Shown here: one piece after another, positions 1-12,163 of the stretch
Position numbering within the stretch: the first letter of the stretch is position 1
Layout: each line of letters opens with the position of its first letter
Assembly: GCA_048941015.1 (NCBI GenBank)
Contig: JBHLNZ010000083.1
Coordinates: 1-12,598 of the forward strand
Direction of reading: 5' to 3'
DNA from: Promethearchaeota archaeon
GTDB lineage: Archaea; Asgardarchaeota; Lokiarchaeia; Sigyniarchaeales; SOKP01
DNA length: 12,598 bases
Made by a program: the position numbers and the translations under genes
Notes under the pieces: generated by a model
The model's database searches: none
Told to the model about the DNA's origin: nothing
What the model saw: only the letters and a program-made list of their open reading frames with translations

Positions 1-129
1 CATGATTCAAAAATAACAGCCATTGATATGGTTAGAGCAGGAAGATTAGCTACTTCTGTAAGAAAAAAGTTTGTAATTGCCAATCCGTTAACTTTAAGTT
101 ATTACTTTTTTGAGTGGTTCAAACCATAA
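1..129 (+). CDS. endA: tRNA-intron (splicing) endonuclease, C-terminal fragment (5' truncated by window edge)
   Basis: Not in the ORF track. Manual frame +1 translation gives HDSKITAIDMVRAGRLATSVRKKFVIANPLTLSYYFFEWFKP*, matching the archaeal EndA C-terminus (R-[LV]-A-x-S-V-R-K-K with the catalytic Lys, ending Y...[WY]-x-[KR]-P). TAA at 127-129. Confidence 0.88.
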   Translation, partial: HDSKITAIDMVRAGRLATSVRKKFVIANPLTLSYYFFEWFKP

Positions 130-198: not shown

Positions 199-651
199 TT
201 AAGAAACCACTAACACCGGAATTGGAGATAGATTAATAATCCGTTCCGTGATGTGACCAGTTATATATGATGGACTCCGTTGTTTACCCCTTACCGGTAT
301 AACTATTAAATCATGGAGAGGGGCAACTTTTAATATCTCATCAACAGGCTCACCAAAAACAATTTTAAAATCGATATTATTCTCATTGAATCCCAAATTT
401 ATGGCACCTTGAATAGCTCTATTACAAAACTTTTCACCTTGTTCATAATATGTTTGTTTGAGCTTTTCTGAATTTTCATTTTGATATAAAACAAGATGAT
501 TTATTTTATCTTCATCTATTACATGGAGAAGTAAAAGTGAGCAATCTTCAAATACTGAAGCAAATCTTGTAGAATAATTAACAGCATTAATACTGCCTTT
601 AGATCCATCAATAGGGATTAAAATTTTTTTATAATTAAGTTTTGGAATCAT
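199..651 (-). CDS. Universal stress protein (UspA family), single domain
   Basis: 150 aa with YKKILIPIDGS at the N-terminus, GEPVDEIL, DLIVI and PIPVLVV at the C-terminus, all typical of Usp domains. Confidence 0.93.
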   Translation of the reverse strand: MIPKLNYKKILIPIDGSKGSINAVNYSTRFASVFEDCSLLLLHVIDEDKINHLVLYQNENSEKLKQTYYEQGEKFCNRAIQGAINLGFNENNIDFKIVFGEPVDEILKVAPLHDLIVIPVRGKQRSPSYITGHITERIINLSPIPVLVVS

Positions 652-809: not shown

Positions 810-2645
810 TTAGGCTTTTTTCAATCTTGGAGCTTTAAATAATAAGTTTAAACAGTTTTGAACAACTTCATTTTTCATTTCACCAATTTTCTTGAACTTG
901 ATATTTGATATTGAAAAATTGATCTCTTGAATGATTTTAATAACAGTATCAAAATTCTCTTCAGTGAAAAAATAATTTTTACGTAATAGAATTGTCCCTT
1001 CTTCGTAAATTGTAAGTATAAGGTTTATTAAAAATAACAGCTTTTTATAATCGGTAAACTGATCCCTCTCATCATATGAATTTTGGATTAAAAAGCAATT
1101 TCTTATTAGCTTTGCAAAAAGTAAATCAAATTTTTGAACATCAATTAAGTCTAATTCACCCGTTAACTGAGCAGTTAATTTGAGTTCGTTTTCTTTCGAA
1201 AGTATTTTATTTACTTTTTCACGAGATTCATACCAACTAATATCAATTAAATTAAACTCTGAATCTTTCTCTTTCCACCACTTTAGAACGCTTTCTGAAT
1301 AATTAGAATATGAATTAAGCCAATCTATCGCAGGATAATGCTTTAAATATGCTAAACGAGGATCTAATGCCCAAATTCCTTGAACTAATCGTTTTGATGC
1401 TGCGGTAACAGGTTCATTAAAGTCACCTCCAGGTGGAGATATCGAACTAATAATTGTAAGAGAACCAGTCTTACTTCCGCTTTCAATATTTTTTCCCAAT
1501 GGTTTAATTACTCCAGCCCGTTCATAAAAACTTGAAAGTTTAGATGGTAAATATGCAGGATACCCTTCTTCGGCGGGCATTTCTTCTAAGAGGCTTGATA
1601 TTTCTCTTAAAGATTCTGCCCATCTTGAGGTACTATCTGCAATAACTGCAACATCATAGCCCATATCACGGTAATATTCAGCAATCGTGACTCCTGAAAA
1701 AAGGCTTGCTTCACGCGCAGAAACAGGCATATTTGAGGTATTAACAATCATAATAACATGATCTAAGATTGGAAGATTATTTTCAGGATTAATTGTTTCA
1801 GAAAATTGCTTTAAAACATTTGCAATTTCGTTACCAGGTTCTCCACATCCAATAAAGACAACAATATCTGCATTACAATATTTTGCTATACTTTCTTGAA
1901 TAACAGTTTTACCTGTACCAAACCCTCCCGGTATTGCTATTGTACCTCCTTTTGCTACAGGAAATAGTAAGTCGATTGTGCGTATTCCAGTAAATAATGG
2001 CTCAAATGGATCTAACTTTTTCCGAAAGGCTCTCGATTGAGTTATTGGGGCTTTTTGTAACATACAAAATGATTTCTCTTCATCATTTCTTTTCAATCGA
2101 TAGATCTCATCAATAATAGTATAATCCCCTTCTTCGGCTATATGAGTAAGCTTTCCTGAATAATTATGAGGTACTAATATTCTATGTTCAATTTCAGGTG
2201 TTTCTTGAACAATTCCAATAATATCACCTTCTTCTATTTGACTATTGATAGATCTGACTGGTTTAAAATGCCATAGTTTCTTACGAGAGAGTGGTTGAAA
2301 CTCAATTCCCCTTTTTAACTCTTCTTCTTGAAATTTGTAATATGTTTCCTCTAGAGGTCTCTGAATTCCATCAAATATATGGGATAACAGACCAGGAGCT
2401 AGTTCCATCGATAAAGGTTCATGCAAATTAATAACTTCTTCATTTAATTTTAAGTTAAACGTGCTTTCAAAACATTGGGCTACTACATAATCTTTATGAA
2501 TTTGAATAATTTCACTCAAAATATTATATTTTGGGATTTTAATTAAATCAAACAATCTTGATTGATTACCTAATCCTTTAACTTCAATTAAGGAGCCAAA
2601 AATTGCTGAGATATGTCCAACCGAATATTTGTTATTAGATACCAT
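810..2645 (-). CDS. atpA: A/V-type ATP synthase subunit A, second divergent paralog (A2), possibly catalytically impaired
   Basis: 611 aa, intact and colinear with the 7478..9313 copy. Has [11 protein letters not shown], Walker [24 protein letters not shown], Walker B region [22 protein letters not shown] and FYERAG, but GCGEPGNE instead of GCGERGNE. Confidence 0.95.
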   Translation of the reverse strand: MVSNNKYSVGHISAIFGSLIEVKGLGNQSRLFDLIKIPKYNILSEIIQIHKDYVVAQCFESTFNLKLNEEVINLHEPLSMELAPGLLSHIFDGIQRPLEETYYKFQEEELKRGIEFQPLSRKKLWHFKPVRSINSQIEEGDIIGIVQETPEIEHRILVPHNYSGKLTHIAEEGDYTIIDEIYRLKRNDEEKSFCMLQKAPITQSRAFRKKLDPFEPLFTGIRTIDLLFPVAKGGTIAIPGGFGTGKTVIQESIAKYCNADIVVFIGCGEPGNEIANVLKQFSETINPENNLPILDHVIMIVNTSNMPVSAREASLFSGVTIAEYYRDMGYDVAVIADSTSRWAESLREISSLLEEMPAEEGYPAYLPSKLSSFYERAGVIKPLGKNIESGSKTGSLTIISSISPPGGDFNEPVTAASKRLVQGIWALDPRLAYLKHYPAIDWLNSYSNYSESVLKWWKEKDSEFNLIDISWYESREKVNKILSKENELKLTAQLTGELDLIDVQKFDLLFAKLIRNCFLIQNSYDERDQFTDYKKLLFLINLILTIYEEGTILLRKNYFFTEENFDTVIKIIQEINFSISNIKFKKIGEMKNEVVQNCLNLLFKAPRLKKA

Positions 2646-2691: not shown

Positions 2692-3099
2692 TTAGGTAAC
2701 TATTTTTTCTCCACAATTAGGACATGTTTTTACGAAGTTCGCTAACTCCATCCCACAATTAGGACATTTTCGAATAATAGGTTTACGATACTTTGAATTA
2801 AGCTTAACATAATCTACTCTTCTTATTCGGGGCTTATTAGATTTAATTTCTTTATATTGACTTGTAGAATCCTGATCTTTTTTATGTATAAATCTGGAGA
2901 AGAAAGATATCCCTTTTCTTCTAAATAAAACACCTAAAAAAAGTAAAAAGCAAAATATGAGAATTAAAATAGCAACGAACGGAGGACTTCCTAAGTCTAT
3001 TAATACCCAATAAAAAAAATAGAGCACCACACAAAAAATTATTAGTAGGATTATTCTAATTGTAAAATATTTCCGCAACGATTTTTTTTGACTTTGCAT
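2692..3099 (-). CDS. Small membrane protein: two N-terminal TM helices, basic linker, C-terminal zinc ribbon
   Basis: 135 aa with hydrophobic stretches IILLIIFCVVLYFFYWVLI and FVAILILIFCFLLFLGVLF, a Lys/Arg-rich linker, and CPNCG-x9-CPNCG at the C-terminus. Confidence 0.85.
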   Translation of the reverse strand: MQSQKKSLRKYFTIRIILLIIFCVVLYFFYWVLIDLGSPPFVAILILIFCFLLFLGVLFRRKGISFFSRFIHKKDQDSTSQYKEIKSNKPRIRRVDYVKLNSKYRKPIIRKCPNCGMELANFVKTCPNCGEKIVT

Positions 3100-3129: not shown

Positions 3130-5421
3130 TTATAGAAAATTTTTAGATATATAATTTCTTGCGTTTTCAAGATTCATTCTTGTTTCTTCAGTCTCAATCT
3201 CTTTCTCTATTTCAGATGTAATTATATCCTTTCTTGCTTCAAATTCAAAATTTATAGAAGAAAATTTTCCCTCTAATATAAAAGGTATAAATTCTGTACC
3301 ACGTCCCTCATAAAATTTGAAAAAGAATTCATAAAAATGCAATCTTAAGGCGTTTAAAAAGACTAATACTCCTTCTATGAGAATAACAACAATATTTCCA
3401 AAGATTAAACTGATTACCACAATAATTTGTACAAATATTCCTTCACCTGGAATAACTGAAACCATTGCCGTAATTGCAAGCATTAACGAAACATGCGCTA
3501 GTGCTAAAGCCATTAAACGAATATACGAAAGCACATTACTAGGGATCGATAATACAGTTTCAAAAGTATCCATAGTACCGTCTCCAATCAATTGTCCATA
3601 AGTAGATGCTCTTAAATATGAAATTCTTAATATTTTTCCTATTGGTTTAAAAAGAATCAATAAGATACCAGGTATTAATGGGAGAAGTATAGGGGGAAAA
3701 GGAGGGGCTAACCAAGCATTAAAATCAAAACGATAACGCATTACTAGATAAACGATTGCATCTAAGAAGAAAATTTTCGTTAGGGACTCTGTTATAGATA
3801 AGAATTTTCTTGATTGTTTCCAATAATTGATAAACTGGAGTATCCATCCTAAATTAATTTGAATGACTCCAACAAAAATCGTAAAAAAAAGAACTGTTAC
3901 TACATTTCCTAAAGGATTATATAATATAATTGAACCGACGAAAGGAATGGGGATGGGTATAGGATTTAAAGGATGCCCAAAAAATTCCTCTGTGCCAAAA
4001 AATTCTCCATAAAATAATCCTCCTAAAACAGCCCACCAACCACACCAAAAAATAATCCAAGAGAAATTATATATACCGCCTCCTCGTTTCCTAAAAATTA
4101 TTGCGCCAATAAGTCCAGAAATTATTAAAACTAAACCGTGTCCCATATCTCCGAACATTATTCCAAAGAATAAAGGAAAAGTAAAGAACAAAAAAGGAGT
4201 TGGATCAATTTCAGAATAAGAAGGAGTTCCATACATCTTTGTTAAAGTCTCAAAAGGTCTAAAGAGCCAATTATGAGTCATTTTTGTGGGAGTTTCTCTT
4301 TTCAAACTATCCCATTTTTCTACTTTTTCATCACTACTATCTTGAAGCTTATTATCTAGGTCGATTACTTTATTATCTATTTTATAGATGTGATCACGTT
4401 CTAGCTTTTTATCTTTTGTTAAAATTCCTTTTTTCCCTATATTTATTACCTCAATTGTGATATCAGTACCAAATTCGCTGATTAATTTTTGATAAGCATT
4501 TTTTTTCTGAGATTGAAGAATAAAAAACCTATAACTCAATCTATCTAATGATAATTCTTCAAATTGACTAGCTGCCCAATTAAACTCCTCTAAATTTGAA
4601 ATACTTTCATAAATTGCAGCAAATTTTAAAATATTATCTGATTTTATCCGCTTAATTTCTTTTTCATATTTTTCCAAATAGTTCTCTAGAAGTGCAATTT
4701 CATTATTAATTCGATCATGATTTATTCCATTGGAAGAAAGAAACTTTTTTAAGATTGGAACTTCTTCACCGTGAATAAGACTAATTTTTTCTCTTAATTT
4801 AGTTTCTTGATCTTTTGGATAAATTATGAAAAATGCAGTTCTATCAGTAGAGATATTTTGCACTTGTATAATACTTGGAAACTCATAAAAATCAAAAATC
4901 GATTTTAAGGTTCCAATATTTTTTGAAAAAGTCGTATAAGTTTTAAAATTAAAGTAAGTTAATTTTGTCAAGTTTTCTCGTGTTAAATTATATTTCTCAA
5001 GGAAGTCATAAGTTTTATCTATAATTTTAATCTTTTCTAATTCGATTTTTGTATCTGAAATATATTTATCTAATTCATTATACCGATTTGTATAGAAATT
5101 AATTTCTTCAATTAAGTAGTCTATTAACTCATGTGAATTTTTAGCGGTATATTTTTTTTTTTCTTTTTCTTTAACTTTTAAGAATTGAAAATCATTTTCT
5201 GTTATATCAAGTTTTTTAAATAAAATGTTTAAATTTAAGCTCAAGCTTTTCAGCTTTTCCTTATATACTTCTTCCGCTTCTGTAATTTGTGTAGATTGAT
5301 ATTCTTGTTTCGATTTAATATGTGCTCCTTTTATTTCTGCTAAAGTTGCTAAAAATATGTCTTTATATCTTCTGTCTAAACTTACCTTAAACAAGCACAT
5401 ATTATTACTTAATTTTACCAT
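3130..5421 (-). CDS. atpI: A/V-type ATP synthase subunit I (a), membrane stator and ion channel
   Basis: 763 aa with a soluble coiled-coil N-half, then PT...PFETLTKMYGTPSYSEIDPT, FFGIMFGDMGHGL, the essential Arg in SYIRLMALALAH (R635, codon 3517-3519), and LRLHFYEFFFKFYEGRG. Confidence 0.97.
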   Translation of the reverse strand: MVKLSNNMCLFKVSLDRRYKDIFLATLAEIKGAHIKSKQEYQSTQITEAEEVYKEKLKSLSLNLNILFKKLDITENDFQFLKVKEKEKKKYTAKNSHELIDYLIEEINFYTNRYNELDKYISDTKIELEKIKIIDKTYDFLEKYNLTRENLTKLTYFNFKTYTTFSKNIGTLKSIFDFYEFPSIIQVQNISTDRTAFFIIYPKDQETKLREKISLIHGEEVPILKKFLSSNGINHDRINNEIALLENYLEKYEKEIKRIKSDNILKFAAIYESISNLEEFNWAASQFEELSLDRLSYRFFILQSQKKNAYQKLISEFGTDITIEVINIGKKGILTKDKKLERDHIYKIDNKVIDLDNKLQDSSDEKVEKWDSLKRETPTKMTHNWLFRPFETLTKMYGTPSYSEIDPTPFLFFTFPLFFGIMFGDMGHGLVLIISGLIGAIIFRKRGGGIYNFSWIIFWCGWWAVLGGLFYGEFFGTEEFFGHPLNPIPIPIPFVGSIILYNPLGNVVTVLFFTIFVGVIQINLGWILQFINYWKQSRKFLSITESLTKIFFLDAIVYLVMRYRFDFNAWLAPPFPPILLPLIPGILLILFKPIGKILRISYLRASTYGQLIGDGTMDTFETVLSIPSNVLSYIRLMALALAHVSLMLAITAMVSVIPGEGIFVQIIVVISLIFGNIVVILIEGVLVFLNALRLHFYEFFFKFYEGRGTEFIPFILEGKFSSINFEFEARKDIITSEIEKEIETEETRMNLENARNYISKNFL

Positions 5422-5432
5422 TTATATAAGAC

Positions 5433-6086
5433 CTACATTAGTTGTTCTTCTTTAATTATATTTTTAGTTTTTTTTAATCTCACAAAATTTTCACGTTCGA
5501 GTTCTTCTAATATATCCTTAATGATTTTAGTCTCGGTTTGTAATTGCGGTTTGATTACGTTTTTTAGTCCATTAATTCTTCGATTTATTTTTTTAAAATT
5601 GAATAATAATTTTAACAAAATATCCTCTTTTTCGGCATAAAAAATCATAGCTTCAAAAAAATCTTTCAATATCTTTATCAACTCATCAAGATGATAAGAG
5701 GAATTTTCAAAAGAATAGGGTGGTAATTTCCTTTCTTGAATTAATCTATAATCAATATAAGGTAGTAAAATTCCAATATTTTTTCTATAAAGAATATCAA
5801 TGAAGGGTTTAAATTGTATTCTGCTTATTTTATTAATCATATTAATTTGCCATTTTCCCATCTCTCTATAGGTTTCGTTTAATTTTATAAGTGCATCAAA
5901 ATATATTTCATAAAATTCTTTTTGAGCTTTCTTATATTCTGGCCAAACGACTTTAATCTGCTGAATTAATTGTTCTTGTTTGTATTCCAAAAAGCTTTCG
6001 CCTCTCATTACAAAATTTAACTTTTTTGTTAAGTTAATTAAATTGGTTTTTGTAGGTTGTAATTTTCTAAAGCTTATTTTTATCAC
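5433..6086 (-). CDS. atpD: A/V-type ATP synthase subunit D (central rotor); start uncertain (GTG 6086 or ATA 6077)
   Basis: N-terminal QPTKTNLINL, KKINRRINGLKNVIKP (divergent form of the KTxRRVNALE motif) and LEELERENFVRLKKTK. Lies immediately after B. Confidence 0.93.
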   Translation of the reverse strand: MIKISFRKLQPTKTNLINLTKKLNFVMRGESFLEYKQEQLIQQIKVVWPEYKKAQKEFYEIYFDALIKLNETYREMGKWQINMINKISRIQFKPFIDILYRKNIGILLPYIDYRLIQERKLPPYSFENSSYHLDELIKILKDFFEAMIFYAEKEDILLKLLFNFKKINRRINGLKNVIKPQLQTETKIIKDILEELERENFVRLKKTKNIIKEEQLM

Positions 6087-7472
6087 CTATTTGGGAAAAT
6101 ATTTATTGATAAATTCTTGATGAATACGATATAATTGATTTTTTGGAATGTTTGATAGTACCTCCCATGCGATTTTAAAAGTCGTTTGAAAATCACGATT
6201 TTCGTCAAAACCTTGATTTAAAAACTTTTTTTCAAAATCATCTCCAAATTGTAATAAAGCTTTTTGTTCTAAATTTAAACTATCTTCACCAATGACAGAG
6301 ATTAAATCTCTAATTTCAAGGGCACTGGAATAAGACGCCAATAATTGAGAACTAATATCTGCATGGTCTTCCCTTGTCGTATTTTTACCAATCGCATCTT
6401 TCATCAATCTAGATATTGAAGCTAACACTTCAAATGGAGGATATATACCTTTTTTTTGTAAATTACGATTAAGTACTAATTGTCCTTCGGTTATGTATCC
6501 TGTTGTGTCCGGTATTGGATGCGAAATGTCATCATTGGGCATCGTTAAGACCGGGATTTGAGTGATAGATCCCTTTTTATCTTTTATAACTCCTGTTCTT
6601 TCATATATTGAAGCAAAATTTGAATAAAGATATCCAGGGTAGCCCTTTCTACTCGGAATCTCCTCTTTAGCGGAACTTAATTCTCTTAAAGCTTCTGCAT
6701 AATTAGACATATCAATTAAAACTACAAGTACATGCATTTCTTTTTCAAAAGCAAAAAATTCTGCTGTTGTTAATGCTACCTTCGGAATTATTAAACGTTC
6801 CATCACGGGATCATCTGCAAAGTTTATAAAAGAAATAATATTTTGAATATTTCCACTTTTTTGAAATTGGTTCATATAAAAGATTGCCTCATCTTGAATT
6901 ATTCCAATACCACAAAAGATCACGAGAAAAGGTTCTTCGGTTAAAACTCTAGCTTGCGTAACAATTTGGGCCGCTAATTTATTATGAGCTATTCCTTGAC
7001 CGCTAAAAATAGGCAATTTTTGTCCTCTTATCAGAGTAAATAAACCATCAATAGTAGAAATACCCGTTTGAATAACTTCTGAGGGATATTGTCTAGCATA
7101 TGGATTAATAGGAGCTCCATTTATATCTCTCTCTGCATCCGTTAATAGATCTAAATCTAATACTTTTTTAGTGTAAATATCTATAGGTTTTCCTATAGAA
7201 TTAAAAACACTCCCTAGCATATCTTTAGAAATTTTTATTTTAAATGGTTCTTCTGTAAAAATAATTTTAGAATTATCAGAAGACATTCCTCGAGTATCTT
7301 CAAAAACTTCAACAACAATAATTTCTTCATTTATTTTAACAACTTGTCCCATTCTCTTTGGTTGACCAATAGTATGAATTTCCACAATTTCTCCATATTG
7401 TACATCATGGTTATTTTCAACAAATACCAATGGACCGATAATTTGTCTTATATCTTTATAACTTACACTCAT
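6087..7472 (-). CDS. atpB: A/V-type ATP synthase subunit B (non-catalytic)
   Basis: [52 protein letters not shown] and arginine finger SISRLMK. ATG at 7472 is preferred over TTG at 7481. Confidence 0.98.
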
Positions 7473-7477
7473 ACTTA

Positions 7478-9313
7478 TCAAATGCTTCTATACGGTATTT
7501 TTAATTCGCTTATTTCTTCTAATAATTTTTTCTTTAGATCTTCAATTTTTTCGAATTTATCATTTGGAATAGAACTACTTATTCTTAAAATATCATTTAC
7601 AATATTAAGTTCTCTTATTTCTTCAATAATTATTCTTTGGTGTAATAATTCTTTTGCTTCTTTATAAAACAATAGAATCAATTTTATCTGTCCCATTAAC
7701 TTTTTCGCATTTGTATAATTATCTATTGAATCAAAGGCATTTTGTATTAAAAATCCTTCTTTAATTAGTTTAGCACAAAAAAGAATTAATTGTTGATCTT
7801 CTGGTAGGTTTTCTTCACCAATTAATTGAGTAATATTTCTTAAATTATTTTCAGTAGATAAAATTTCGTTTACTTGGTTTCTACATTCTTCCCAATTTAA
7901 TTCTAATTCTGGCCACCTAATATCTCTTTGATTCCACCATTGAGAAACATATTCAGGATAATTAGAATATGAATCTAGCCAATTTAGTGCGGGATAATGT
8001 TTTGCATAAGCTAATCTTGCATCTAAAGCCCAAAATGCTTGAACAAAGCGCTTAGTAGTAGCTGTTACTGGCTCACTAAAATCTCCTGAAGGAGGGGATA
8101 CTGATCCAATAATAGTTAAAGATCCTGCTTTTCTTTTTCTGAGATTATTACTGCCTAAAATATCAACGACACCTGCTCTTTCATAAAAGCTAGATAGTTT
8201 AGAGGGTAAATATGCTGGATATCCTTCTTCAGCAGGCATTTCTTCTAATAATCCAGATATTTCTCTCAATGATTCTGCCCATCTTGAAGTGCTATCAGCC
8301 ATTAACGCTACATCATATCCCATATCTCTATAATATTCTGCTATCGTTATTCCTGAGAATATGCTTGCTTCTCGAGCAGATACAGGCATATTCGAAGTAT
8401 TTGCTATTAGCACAACTCGTTCTAATAAGGGGCGTTGTGTTCTTGGATCAGTAAGTTTTGAAAATTCTTTTAAGCTATCTGCAATTTCATTTCCTCTTTC
8501 TCCACAGCCTACAAAAATAATGATATTAGCATCACACCATTTTGCAAGAGCTTGTTGAATCACAGTTTTACCAGTCCCAAAACCTCCTGGAACAGCAACA
8601 GTTCCACCCTTTGCTACAGGAAAAAGTAAATCTATTACACGGGTTCCCGTAATTAGAGGTTCAATCGGACTAGTCTTTTTTTTAAATGGTCTACTTCTGG
8701 TAACTGGCCATTTTTGTATCATATTAAATACTTTTTCTTTTCCATCATGTTTCAGTGTATAAATCTTGTCTATGATGGTATAATCTCCCTCTTCAACAAG
8801 AGAAGTTAAAATTCCAGATTCTTTTGGAGGTATCATTATATAATGCTTTATTAAAGGAGTTTCTTGAACAACCCCAACAACATCTCCTCCATGAAGGTTA
8901 GCATTTTTCTTTTGTAAAGGTGTAAAGTGCCATTTCTTTGTCCGCGATAGAGAAGGTAAATCTTTTCCTCTCTCTATGAAACTCTGATTATCCATTTCTG
9001 AAAAAAGTGTTTTTAATGGTCTTTGAATTCCATCAAATATACTTGAGAGTAATCCTGGAGCCAATTCCATAGATAATGGTTCTTTTAAATCAATTACACT
9101 TTCATAGAGCTTTAAATTGCTTGTATCTTCAAAAGATTGGACAATAATTCTATCTGTATAAATTTGAATAACTTCACCTAGAATATTCAAATTAGAAATC
9201 CTGATTAAATCATGAAGTTTAATATCATGTTCTAAACCTTTAACTTCGATTATAGAACCATTTATCATCGAGATATATCCAGTATGTTCCTGATTCATTT
9301 TAGATTTAATCAT
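7478..9313 (-). CDS. atpA: A/V-type ATP synthase catalytic subunit A (A1, canonical copy)
   Basis: Walker [11 protein letters not shown], intact [45 protein letters not shown] and FLIQNAF. Sits between E and B with no intein-sized insertion. Alternative ATG at 9298. Confidence 0.98.
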
Positions 9314-10031
9314 AATTTTTTAGATAGTTTTTAATTTCTTTTTTTTTCAAATTGACATAATTTTCAAATTCATCATTTGATTCTTTATATTTGATATCTG
9401 TAATTAATTTTGAAAATTCTATTTCAATATCAACATAATTACTTATTAATAAAGAATCTATGGTATAATCATAAGAGATATTAGCTTTAGTCATATTAAC
9501 TTTAAATCCTCCTATATACTCTTCATTTGCTTTTTCTATAATAACTGGATTTTTAAGTATGTTTTTAATTGATCCAATATTTTTATTAAAGTAATTGTAA
9601 TCTCTTGAATTAAAATATAAAATAATTTCACCTGGTTTATCTATATTTGTACTTATCTTTTGAATGTATTTTAATATAAAATCAACATAATTTTCATATC
9701 TCTCATTAATAGAGTCTTTAATATGGTTTTTGAGAGATATTTTTAAATTATTTATTAGTTCGATCTTTAAACTAAGTAATTTTTCTCTTGATTCCAAAAG
9801 AGTGGATGTTAAGAATGAATTTAAAATTTCATTATATTGCTCAATGAAATTTTCTTTTAATTTTTCTGATTGTTTGCGCATTCGATCTTCAAAATTTTTC
9901 CTAATTTCTGCTTTTTGAAATAATGTTGTTCTATTAATTTCTTTTATTTCTCGTTGAGCTTGATCAATCATAAAGAGCCCTAGAAGCCCAACTTTTTCCT
10001 TCAACTCTGCTTCTTCCGAAATAAATATCAC
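9306..10031 (-). CDS. atpE: A/V-type ATP synthase subunit E (peripheral stalk); start uncertain (GTG 10031 or ATT 10022)
   Basis: Charged helical N-half and C-terminal IGGFKV...ISYDYTIDSLL, matching the GG...[DN]xTxxxxL motif of subunit E. Overlaps the A start by 8 nt. Confidence 0.88.
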   Translation of the reverse strand: MIFISEEAELKEKVGLLGLFMIDQAQREIKEINRTTLFQKAEIRKNFEDRMRKQSEKLKENFIEQYNEILNSFLTSTLLESREKLLSLKIELINNLKISLKNHIKDSINERYENYVDFILKYIQKISTNIDKPGEIILYFNSRDYNYFNKNIGSIKNILKNPVIIEKANEEYIGGFKVNMTKANISYDYTIDSLLISNYVDIEIEFSKLITDIKYKESNDEFENYVNLKKKEIKNYLKNYD

Positions 10032-10036
10032 CCAAT

Positions 10037-10357
10037 TTAAGTTAAAATTTTCCCTAAAGATTTGCTAACTTTACTAATAAAAAGATCTTTTGTCTCATGA
10101 TTTGATGTGAAAAGATTTGGCAGATAAAAAATAAATGGTTTTCTTCTATTTAGTTTAAAATCTATTAGAGTTTCTATAATATTATCTGGTAAATCAAGAG
10201 CAATGATAATCAAATAAATTGCAGGATTTTCCACCAAATCATTAAATTGCTTCATAAAATCTTTATTATCATCAATTACTGTACCATTGATTCCTAATAA
10301 TCCCAGCAAAGTGATAATTTCATCAGTTCCAATAACATGTATCTGTTGTTCAGGCAT
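10037..10357 (-). CDS. atpF: A/V-type ATP synthase subunit F
   Basis: 106 aa with IHVIGTDEIITLLGLLGING (cf. IAVIGDxDTVxGFxLAGV), a YLIII strand and PFIFYLP. TAATG overlap with the upstream gene. Confidence 0.92.
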   Translation of the reverse strand: MPEQQIHVIGTDEIITLLGLLGINGTVIDDNKDFMKQFNDLVENPAIYLIIIALDLPDNIIETLIDFKLNRRKPFIFYLPNLFTSNHETKDLFISKVSKSLGKILT

Positions 10358-10668
10358 TAAAAATTATACACCATTTTATCTAAAATTATTTCAATTATCT
10401 TAGATTTTTTATTTAAGTAGCTATTTCTAATATTCTCTAATTCAATTTTATTTTTTTTCTTAAGAGTTGAAATATGATCTTCAATATCTTTTGAAAGTTC
10501 ATCGAGAACAATCTTTATATACTGGTCTTTTTTCTGTATTAATTCCTTCAACTGACTTTCTTCTTTTTTAATTAATTGTTCAATTTGGGTTGCCTTGTCT
10601 TTTTTTGCATTATCAATTAACTCTTTATAAATTCTTTCAACTTCTTCTAACCATTTAAAAAGTTCCAT
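10357..10668 (-). CDS. atpH: A/V-type ATP synthase subunit H (G-equivalent, peripheral stalk coiled coil)
   Basis: 103 aa, E/K-rich all-helical pattern (LEEVERIYKELIDNAKKDK...IIEIILDKMV). Size and operon position fit. GAGG RBS upstream. Confidence 0.75.
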   Translation of the reverse strand: MELFKWLEEVERIYKELIDNAKKDKATQIEQLIKKEESQLKELIQKKDQYIKIVLDELSKDIEDHISTLKKKNKIELENIRNSYLNKKSKIIEIILDKMVYNF

Positions 10669-10693: not shown

Positions 10694-11743
10694 TTATTTT
10701 AATTCTAAAATTGTAAATTTTTTATTTATAATATTTACTATATTTGGTATAATTTCTCTTTTAATTTCTTTTTCTTTCTTAATTATCAATTCTAATATCT
10801 TATAAATTGTTTGATATTCAATATCATCCATTTTCATTCTAAATTTTCTAAAATAATATTCTTGAAAAATTCTCTCAAGTTCCCATATCGGATGCTCAGA
10901 ATTAGAAAGATTGCCTATGTATTTTAATTCCACAATAGGCCTAAACAAATCATCGATAGTTAAAAAAAAATCATTTAAATTATTTTGGTTCAAGAGCAAA
11001 TCGATTTTATTTTCATCTAAAAATAAAAAGTAATTAACAATAAATTGACTCAATAATTGTTTATCGATATTATTTGTTATACCCCGATAAATTAAATTAA
11101 TATTATAAATTTCTGCTTTGTATCTATTAAATAAACTTATCATCTCTCTTTCTTTTACATTATATATCTTTTCTCTCTGAATCATGGTTATATAATATAA
11201 TTGATCTAAAAAAGCCTCAAGAACAAAAATTTCGTTTTTATTTTTAAAGTAAAGTAACCCTTCTCTAATTGCTTTATTATACTTTGTTGGCTTCATATAT
11301 AGTTGTATACCTTGTAATGTAGAAATTTCTATTAATTTATTTATAAATTCGGTATTTTCTAAATATTTTTCAATTAACATGTTAACATTTTTTAGCTTTT
11401 CTTCAGTATTCATCCCTATAATTAACCCTAGAATGATTTCTTTTATATTCATAATCTCATATTTCATTAAGTAATCTTTAAGAAAACGTCTCATATTTAA
11501 AGGTGAAATAAAAATTATTTTTCCAATAAGCTTAAAAAACACTATGTATAACGCTTTTTCAATTTCTTCAATTGAATATTTAGTAATTTTTAAATTAGGA
11601 TAATAAGGAGCTAAAACAGTTAAATAATCTTCAATATCTATTATATCTTTAAGTTTTTTTAAAGTATTATCATCAATTATTAATTGCTTCAAAAATCCTA
11701 TCCTTATAAAAGTGTATGCATAAGCTGGAACTGGTATACTCGT
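10694..11743 (-). CDS. atpC: A/V-type ATP synthase subunit C (d); extended upstream of the ORF-track TTG (11692), putative ACG start
   Basis: C-family motifs KYEIMNIKEII, LEAFLDQLYY and EIYNINLIYRG. The frame stays open upstream of 11692 and encodes SIPVPAYAYTFIRIGF-LKQLI, resembling the conserved YxYxxARxxxMxxxLL N-terminus. In-frame TAG at 11756-11758. Identity is secure; the exact start is not. Confidence 0.88.
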   Translation of the reverse strand, partial: TSIPVPAYAYTFIRIGFLKQLIIDDNTLKKLKDIIDIEDYLTVLAPYYPNLKITKYSIEEIEKALYIVFFKLIGKIIFISPLNMRRFLKDYLMKYEIMNIKEIILGLIIGMNTEEKLKNVNMLIEKYLENTEFINKLIEISTLQGIQLYMKPTKYNKAIREGLLYFKNKNEIFVLEAFLDQLYYITMIQREKIYNVKEREMISLFNRYKAEIYNINLIYRGITNNIDKQLLSQFIVNYFLFLDENKIDLLLNQNNLNDFFLTIDDLFRPIVELKYIGNLSNSEHPIWELERIFQEYYFRKFRMKMDDIEYQTIYKILELIIKKEKEIKREIIPNIVNIINKKFTILELK

Positions 11744-11791: not shown

Positions 11792-12163
11792 TTAAGGAGA
11801 GGGAATTTTAGTCCACAAAAGTATTGCTATAATCAACCCATAAACGGCTAAAGCTTCTGCTAATGCTACTACTAAGAATGCTTTAAAAAAAGATTCTTCT
11901 CTTTCAGTTAAAGCGGCAATTGCAGAAGTGCCCACAGTTTTTATTGCCATCCCACTTCCTAAAACAGCAAATCCAACAGCAATCGCTGACGCAATCCCTA
12001 ATAGTCCTGCAGTTGATGATTGATAGTATTGAAGATTTTCTGAAGTTTGAGCTACAGTTAAGGTGATGATTCCATTAGTCGATATAAAAACTATGAATAT
12101 CAAAAATATTTGGTAAAGGGCAATCAATAGATAAAATTTTTGTTTCCGATTCAACTCATTCAC
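11792..12163 (-). CDS. atpK: A/V-type ATP synthase proteolipid subunit K (c), single hairpin with an extra N-terminal hydrophobic segment
   Basis: Gly/Ala-rich helix GIASAIAVGFAVLGSGMAI, loop ALTEREESF, and second helix VALAEALAVYGLIIAILL with ion-binding E103 (codon 11855-11857). Start is GTG 12163 or TTG 12154. Confidence 0.95.
   Translation of the reverse strand: MNELNRKQKFYLLIALYQIFLIFIVFISTNGIITLTVAQTSENLQYYQSSTAGLLGIASAIAVGFAVLGSGMAIKTVGTSAIAALTEREESFFKAFLVVALAEALAVYGLIIAILLWTKIPSP

Follow-up and report, generated by a model that had tools for sequence, protein, structure and literature searches.

A second catalytic-subunit gene with proline in place of the phosphate-binding arginine in a Lokiarchaeial A/V-ATPase operon, probably encoding a slow or non-working head subunit

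The rotary A/V-ATPase operon of a Lokiarchaeial genome ends with a second, well-preserved copy of the catalytic-subunit gene, here called A2, in which the arginine that follows the catalytic glutamate is always replaced by proline, and whose product, judged from sequence comparison, is probably a slow or non-working subunit of the ATPase head. A preceding sequence-only reading of the same DNA had set GCGEPGNE of A2 (CCT, 1836-1838, P270) against GCGERGNE of the canonical copy A1 (AGA, 8495-8497), correctly in coordinates and description, and had proposed a 'pseudo-catalytic or decoy' subunit. The full-length, selected paralog that has lost its phosphate-binding arginine agrees with this proposal, while the invariant catalytic glutamate favours a slow site over a dead decoy.

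In the literature searched, no paper on an Arg-less A2 or on duplicated Asgard A subunits was encountered, although a Loki MAG has been described that matches both an A-type and a V-type reference (PMC7997004). Public records simply name the proteins with proline 'V-type ATP synthase subunit A', so that metabolic reconstructions may miscount catalytic subunits.

The operon and its second catalytic-subunit gene

The window, i.e. the whole stretch of DNA that was analysed, corresponds to one entire contig (12.6 kb) of a Lokiarchaeial (Promethearchaeota) MAG of 3.59 Mb and carries on its minus strand one rotary A/V-ATPase operon in the order K-C-H-F-E-A1-B-D-I-Zn-A2:

11792-12163, minus strand: K, upstream part of the operon
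10694-11692, minus strand: C, upstream part of the operon
10357-10668, minus strand: H, upstream part of the operon
10037-10357, minus strand: F, upstream part of the operon
9306-10031, minus strand: E, upstream part of the operon
7478-9313, minus strand: A1, canonical catalytic subunit A with GCGERGNE (Pfam and motif)
6087-7481, minus strand: B, the sole non-catalytic subunit gene in the genome (Pfam and genome search)
5433-6086, minus strand: D (Pfam)
3130-5421, minus strand: I (Pfam)
2692-3099, minus strand: Zn-ribbon membrane protein between I and A2 (Pfam; two transmembrane segments according to the sequence-only reading)
810-2645, minus strand: A2, second catalytic-subunit gene, 611 amino acids, last gene of the operon (Pfam and relatives)
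199-651, minus strand: universal-stress protein (Usp)
1-126, plus strand: tRNA-splicing endonuclease, C-terminal 42 residues (98% identical to that of a relative)

Genome-wide, exactly two A genes, A1 and A2, accompany one B gene, and the window's genome holds no second B gene. The genes from E to D are tightly packed, with an 8-nt overlap between the end of E and the start of A1, a 4-nt overlap between the end of A1 and B, and D directly adjoining B, an arrangement suggestive of translational coupling. In the window's genome, A2 is separated by a 46-nt spacer, with no obvious SD before it and with TATTTA 24-29 nt ahead of its ATG. Position and sequence of this spacer are unconserved among 64 orthologous loci, in many of which an SD-like purine run is present, and co-transcription of A2 with the operon is a simpler reading than a promoter of its own.

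Among relatives, A2 is operon-terminal in all loci inspected with enough flank and lies 20-50 nt past the Zn-ribbon gene, while the next gene beyond it is usually convergent and in most relatives is directly the tRNA-splicing endonuclease. The Usp gene stands between A2 and the endonuclease in three genomes only (the window's, G022 and G203), with the convergent endonuclease adjoining A2 elsewhere, and Usp was therefore rejected as a partner of A2. The Zn-ribbon protein was likewise rejected as an A2-specific partner, as it persists in genomes without A2. This protein, which has a CPxCG C-terminus, follows subunit I in every inspected operon of the Lokiarchaeial family termed f1 here, A2-less genomes included (window 2692-3099, minus strand; L052:11906-12349), and may be a candidate for an extra membrane-sector subunit. 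A seemingly split operon in genome G217, with A1 about 860 kb away from I-Zn-A2, is probably a scaffolding artefact given the 100-N scaffold gap immediately upstream of I.

The four-domain architecture of subunit A, composed of an N-terminal beta-barrel, the A-specific barrel-sandwich insert, the nucleotide-binding domain and the V/A C-terminal domain, is complete in A2, and all its Pfam domains score above the curated cut-offs (PF02874 1.3e-05, PF16886 1.2e-24, PF00006 4.4e-71 and PF22919 3e-10). A2 is 58% identical to A1 of the window and matches solved A chains with E = 1e-150 to 1e-139; its match to the window's B is restricted to residues 212-483 at 31% identity. On the minus strand, positions 1850-1824 of A2 read gga tgt gga gaa cct ggt aac gaa att (GCGEPGNEI), and the corresponding positions 8509-8483 of A1 read ggc tgt gga gaa aga gga aat gaa att (GCGERGNEI). 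The positions of interest are:

1836-1838, minus strand: Pro270 (CCT) where the GER motif has Arg; the same in all 57 aligned A2 proteins and at 68 loci
8495-8497, minus strand: Arg273 (AGA) of A1, from the codon reading
1839-1841, minus strand: Glu269 (GAA), the catalytic Glu, kept; invariant alignment column
1905-1928, minus strand: Walker A/P-loop GGFGTGKT, residues 240-247, kept; G240-T247 invariant
1701-1703, minus strand: Leu315, Ile in all A1 and outgroup copies (column analysis)
1131-1160, minus strand: residues 496-505, putative counterpart of the lever loop, relaxed in A2 (column analysis and regional identity)

In the alignment of the 57 A2 proteins, G240-T247, E269, P270, R311, the Walker B residue D337, R341 and W342 are invariant, as are SPP and EPV of the stretch SPPGGDF..EPV, whose G-D-F is at least 90% conserved. 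The description of A2 as full length with Walker A, catalytic glutamate and Walker B retained is thereby borne out by its four Pfam domains and invariant residues. With the canonical A subunits of Pyrococcus horikoshii (3M4Y/1VDZ), Enterococcus hirae (3VR2) and Thermus thermophilus (3W3A), A2 shares the four-domain architecture, P-loop, catalytic glutamate, Walker B and operon context, and gcgeRgne of 3M4Y aligns to gcgePgne of A2, which differs from them by its relaxed lever domain and as a second copy placed beyond subunit I. As the defining domains, motifs and operon context of subunit A are present except for the arginine of GER, A2 is a degenerate member of the A family; it is not B-type, because the P-loop, the catalytic glutamate and the A-specific insert (PF16886) are kept.

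Proline codons, selection and distribution of A2

CCT is one base away from the arginine codon CGT, and the proline might be put down to a mistake in sequencing or assembly, or to a pseudogene in decay; the probability of this is practically nil. The order K-C-H-F-E-A1-B-D-I-Zn-A2 recurs at 14 further loci from the window's genus with all frames open, with arginine in each operon-internal and proline in each operon-terminal copy. A2 orthologs keep the proline at 68 distinct loci, an outcome that the sequence-only reading had named as a check together with a dN/dS below 1, and they do so with four different codons (CCT 35, CCA 25, CCG 5 and CCC 3), while A1-type copies at 51 loci encode arginine (AGA 21, CGT 12, CGA 11, CGG 4 and CGC 3). 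A reversion to arginine, one base from every proline codon, was never seen among the 68 A2 loci. Positions 1836-1838 are furthermore covered by Logan contigs from four separate studies without a difference among the rows listed; as assembled sequence, these contigs attest presence and agreement rather than depth or rare variants, and the independent assemblies favour CCT at the codon that the sequence-only reading had wanted checked. Pairwise dN/dS amounts to 0.09-0.16 for A2, with 0.28 for one low-dS pair, and to 0.06-0.15 for A1 of the same genome pairs, by which measure A2 is under purifying selection about as strong as that on A1. The 68 loci, the open frames, a dN/dS of about 0.1 and the concordance of the four studies refute error and decay. 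Among the nearest 120 proteins in a collection of 5.8 billion proteins, 100 have proline at the site.

The GCGEPGNE DNA pattern occurs exactly once in each of 74 genomes out of 134 sampled from f1, distributed over the genera g1 (25/41, counting the window's own genome), g12 (3/5), g15 (1/6), g19 (1/1), g21 (2/10) and g22 (42/54), and is absent from all 265 genomes sampled from other Asgard families; a reversed control pattern gave no match. When one genome of each prokaryotic species was scanned, the matches in ATPase context were all Promethearchaeota MAGs among the first 80 of at least 111 stretches, some of them deposited under the names Odin-, Hod- or Hermodarchaeota, and the four of these that were checked are all f1 genomes. 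Bacterial matches to the DNA pattern were discarded as off-frame or unrelated, among those inspected. In the neighbouring family f2, the closed genomes carry one A gene each, and this has arginine. Of 150 proteins that represent 50% identity clusters of the wider A family, 112 have a recognisable motif, with arginine in all 112 and no exchange to proline among them.

A2 is missing in about 40% of f1 genomes, and single-A genomes of this family that are 98-100% complete exist. In G020, which has no A2, the next genes after that of the Zn-ribbon protein are the convergent tRNA-splicing endonuclease and Memo, the same genes that flank A2 in the sister G018. Cleanly absent from near-complete relatives and from a sister species with intact flanks, A2 is dispensable.

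In a maximum-likelihood tree, every A2 copy falls inside the A-subunit clade of family f1, and the best tree with A2 as one clade beats the free quick search (+13 lnL, p-AU 0.68), so that the tree, another check named by the sequence-only reading, is compatible with a single, old duplication. Identity between A1 and A2 within a genome is about that among A2 orthologs, which is in keeping with an old duplication at about the origin of the family, and the identity comparison gave no sign of recent gene conversion.

Some other arrangements of subunit A were observed. A1-type open frames of 1137-1157 amino acids (G211:C71:88189-91602 and G034:C65:18597-21914) probably carry an intein, with GCGERGNE after the insert in G211, and no insert-bearing A2 was seen. 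Two separate A/V-ATPase loci, L048 (G031:C112) and L049 (G031:C121), occur in one genome of family f4, both with GERGNE and one of them with a Usp gene between D and I. One genome that is placed in the window's genus contains a distant A only (46% identity), at locus L050 (G008:C24:184000-200000) and in a rearranged order, I-K and then B-A on the opposite strand; this A may have replaced the usual one or may stem from contamination of the bin.

The arginine beside the catalytic glutamate and the constraint on A2

Rotary ATPases are usually described with three identical catalytic subunits, and the arginine beside the catalytic glutamate is among their most conserved residues. A single incompetent beta subunit is said to abolish steady-state ATPase activity, as reportedly found by Amano et al. 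in 1996. The role at the phosphate that the sequence-only reading ascribed to the arginine is documented: in V1 of E. hirae, A-Arg262 contacts the gamma-phosphate alongside the P-loop lysine and the arginine finger of B (PMC5095293), and the equivalent beta-Arg182 of Escherichia coli F1 is required at all stages, with betaR182Q and betaR182K showing no ATP synthesis, low ATPase activity and no Pi binding, and with R182Q eliminating the transition state (PMC3268026). In F1 with catalytic residues changed to alanine, rotation persists at a 10^3 to 10^4 times lower speed (PMC5380711), by analogy with which A2 may have a slow or a tuned site and not a dead one. A hybrid F1 with one altered, slow beta subunit (E190D) pauses at the angle of that subunit (PMC2755722).

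A column comparison of 28 A2, 34 family A1 and 10 outgroup A sequences revealed only R273P and I318L (L315 in A2) as fully fixed differences from A1 to A2 in the sampled copies, with V405I near-fixed and with no new conserved basic residue in A2. Regional identity was compared in 13 genomes that carry both copies. In the N-terminal barrel, linker and A-specific insert, mean pairwise identity is 0.58-0.67 for A2 against 0.60-0.66 for A1, and the extra divergence of A2 is limited to residues 271-315 just past the GEP loop, 391-435 and the C-terminal domain (481-600), with mean pairwise identities of 0.57-0.61 against 0.78-0.84 at residues 481-525 and of 0.42 against 0.57 at residues 541-611. The region around P504 of A1 (496-505 in A2) we take, from our own reading of the alignment, to be the counterpart of the DELSEED lever loop of F1 beta; P504 is invariant in A1 and retained in just 39% of A2 copies. 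This pattern of constraint fits an A2 that would fold as an A subunit, bind nucleotide and sit in the crown of the ring with a looser coupling to the rotor, and with its C-terminal domain so relaxed, A2 could even no longer meet the rotor at all.

A2 may alternatively be a fully working isoenzyme, in which the proline re-tunes affinity or kinetics, e.g. by weaker Pi or ATP binding, and which forms A2(3)B(3) heads under particular conditions. Catalytic glutamate, P-loop, Walker B and the second arginine are all invariant in A2, its dN/dS is as low as that of A1, and the fixation of proline rather than any residue suggests a positive role. In the AlphaFold model of A2, which is mediocre (pLDDT 74.8) and was consulted solely for secondary structure near P270, the proline immediately precedes helix 272-283, and a proline directly before a helix need not disturb the fold. 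The start of this modelled helix matches that of the 'arm' helix of E. hirae A, which starts at 261-262 (PMC5095293). Nevertheless, we regard the isoenzyme as unlikely: a compensating basic residue is not fixed in A2, in E. coli F1 the conservative exchange R182K is already enough to eliminate both synthesis and the binding of Pi (PMC3268026), constraint is relaxed in the lever region, which links catalysis with the rotor, and the arginine is kept in the 112 diverse A-like representatives with a recognisable motif.

A2 as a putative subunit of the ATPase head

As A2 has no B of its own and lies in the ATPase operon at every locus inspected, its simplest partner is the single B. A complex model of B(1-464) with A2(1-530) reached an ipSAE of 0.59 against 0.00 for the best control, a weak signal that may reflect the A-B complexes already solved; of 80 solved complexes, 58 attain the mark, and of 110 mismatched pairs, 2 do, but at 0.60 or below lie only 7 of the 80 solved complexes and both mismatches. 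The model runs agree in at least 95% of contacts, with a partner pLDDT of 81. Since A-B complexes have been solved, the model indicates likeness rather than binding.

The weakness of this model is in line with a role of A2 away from the rotary enzyme, either with a different partner or on its own as a sensor that binds nucleotide, the operon being shared for co-regulation. The rotor-facing C-terminal domain is moreover the least constrained part of A2, and A2 has been lost without loss of the ATPase. Such a role is nonetheless decidedly improbable, as the N-terminal barrel and bulge of A2 are constrained as in A1, no A2-specific partner gene co-occurs (Zn stays without A2, Usp is found in three genomes) and A2 is operon-terminal in all loci inspected. 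Barrel and bulge form the crown and the outer face of the ring.

The reading that we prefer, and to which we give about an even chance, is that A2 is a ring-competent, nucleotide-binding isoform with weakened catalysis, which would replace A1 beside the single B and throttle turnover. A2 would still fold and still bind nucleotide, and it would probably pair with the single B in the A3B3 head of the same enzyme. With proline instead of arginine beside the catalytic glutamate, the A2 site would handle the gamma-phosphate and Pi poorly, and its turnover, extrapolated from mutants of other enzymes, would be much slower than that of A1 in both directions. As A subunits contact only B in the ring, A2 could presumably mix with A1, and a head with at least one A2 would stall or slow down, above all in ATP-driven rotation, which would make A2 an optional built-in throttle of the ATPase. 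That the site is slow or specially shaped rather than that of a dead copy is argued by the invariant catalytic glutamate and by the specific fixation of proline, where loss of the arginine alone would tolerate many residues. On the other hand, the invariant glutamate and the otherwise intact site would be superfluous in a purely structural A2 and count against the throttle, as do the dispensability of A2 and its relaxed C-terminal domain.

A more specific version, which we consider rather unlikely, holds that in mixed heads at least one A1 is replaced by the Arg-less A2, whose encoded slow site would block or strongly slow ATP-driven rotation while ion-driven synthesis would continue at the remaining A1 sites, so that A2 would be an in-ring inhibitor of energy-starved sediment archaea that is lost where it is not needed. 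A 'gear shift', in which a dead site raises the ion/ATP ratio and permits synthesis at lower ion-motive force, was rejected on our own physical reasoning, as each 120-degree step would deliver the same torque as before and the dead site would simply forfeit its own.

The evidence for ring competence would equally suit a role in assembly, in which A2, as a placeholder or chaperone, keeps B or the stalks in place until A1 takes over, and A2 is dispensable; this alternative is very unlikely, with nothing specific in its favour and with an invariant catalytic glutamate and P-loop that it does not need.

If A2 does enter the head, it would be a natural version of hand-built hybrid motors and a new regulation of the ATPase from inside the ring, and would bear on how ATP waste is avoided at the energy limit. 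The laboratory constructs betaR182Q/K, altered at the same residue position as A2 but with glutamine or lysine in place of its proline (PMC3268026), and the E190D hybrid F1 would then have in A2 a natural, selected counterpart. IF1, the bacterial epsilon subunit and zeta have the outcome proposed for A2, limitation of wasteful turnover of a rotary ATPase, a functional comparison at the level of a proposal; they are small and bind outside the ring, whereas A2 would act inside it.

Nearest in concept is the pair of catalytic and non-catalytic subunits, A and B or beta and alpha. B and alpha are ancient, universal and essential subunits, which alternate with the catalytic subunit and have lost the motifs of the catalytic site. 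A truncation of the P-loop of B has been mentioned (10.64898/2026.10.01.756066). The likeness lies in a catalytic-subunit paralog that is kept with its catalytic power lost, probably as a nucleotide-binding member of the ring, which for A2 is conjectural; A2 differs in being young, family-restricted and optional, in keeping everything except a single arginine, and in that it would occupy the ring position of A, not that of B.

Degenerate loops of other kinds occur in A-like proteins among the representatives of the wider family, with the glutamate changed to alanine, glycine, lysine or isoleucine, or the arginine to histidine or glutamine (P0194, P0178, P0180, P0209, P0231, P0233, P0247, P0253 and P0266). 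The protein P0194 (L184:10001-11842, SCGARGNE) is the sole A on its contig, and its operon, I-K-x-A-B, has genes of glycolysis and chemotaxis as neighbours.
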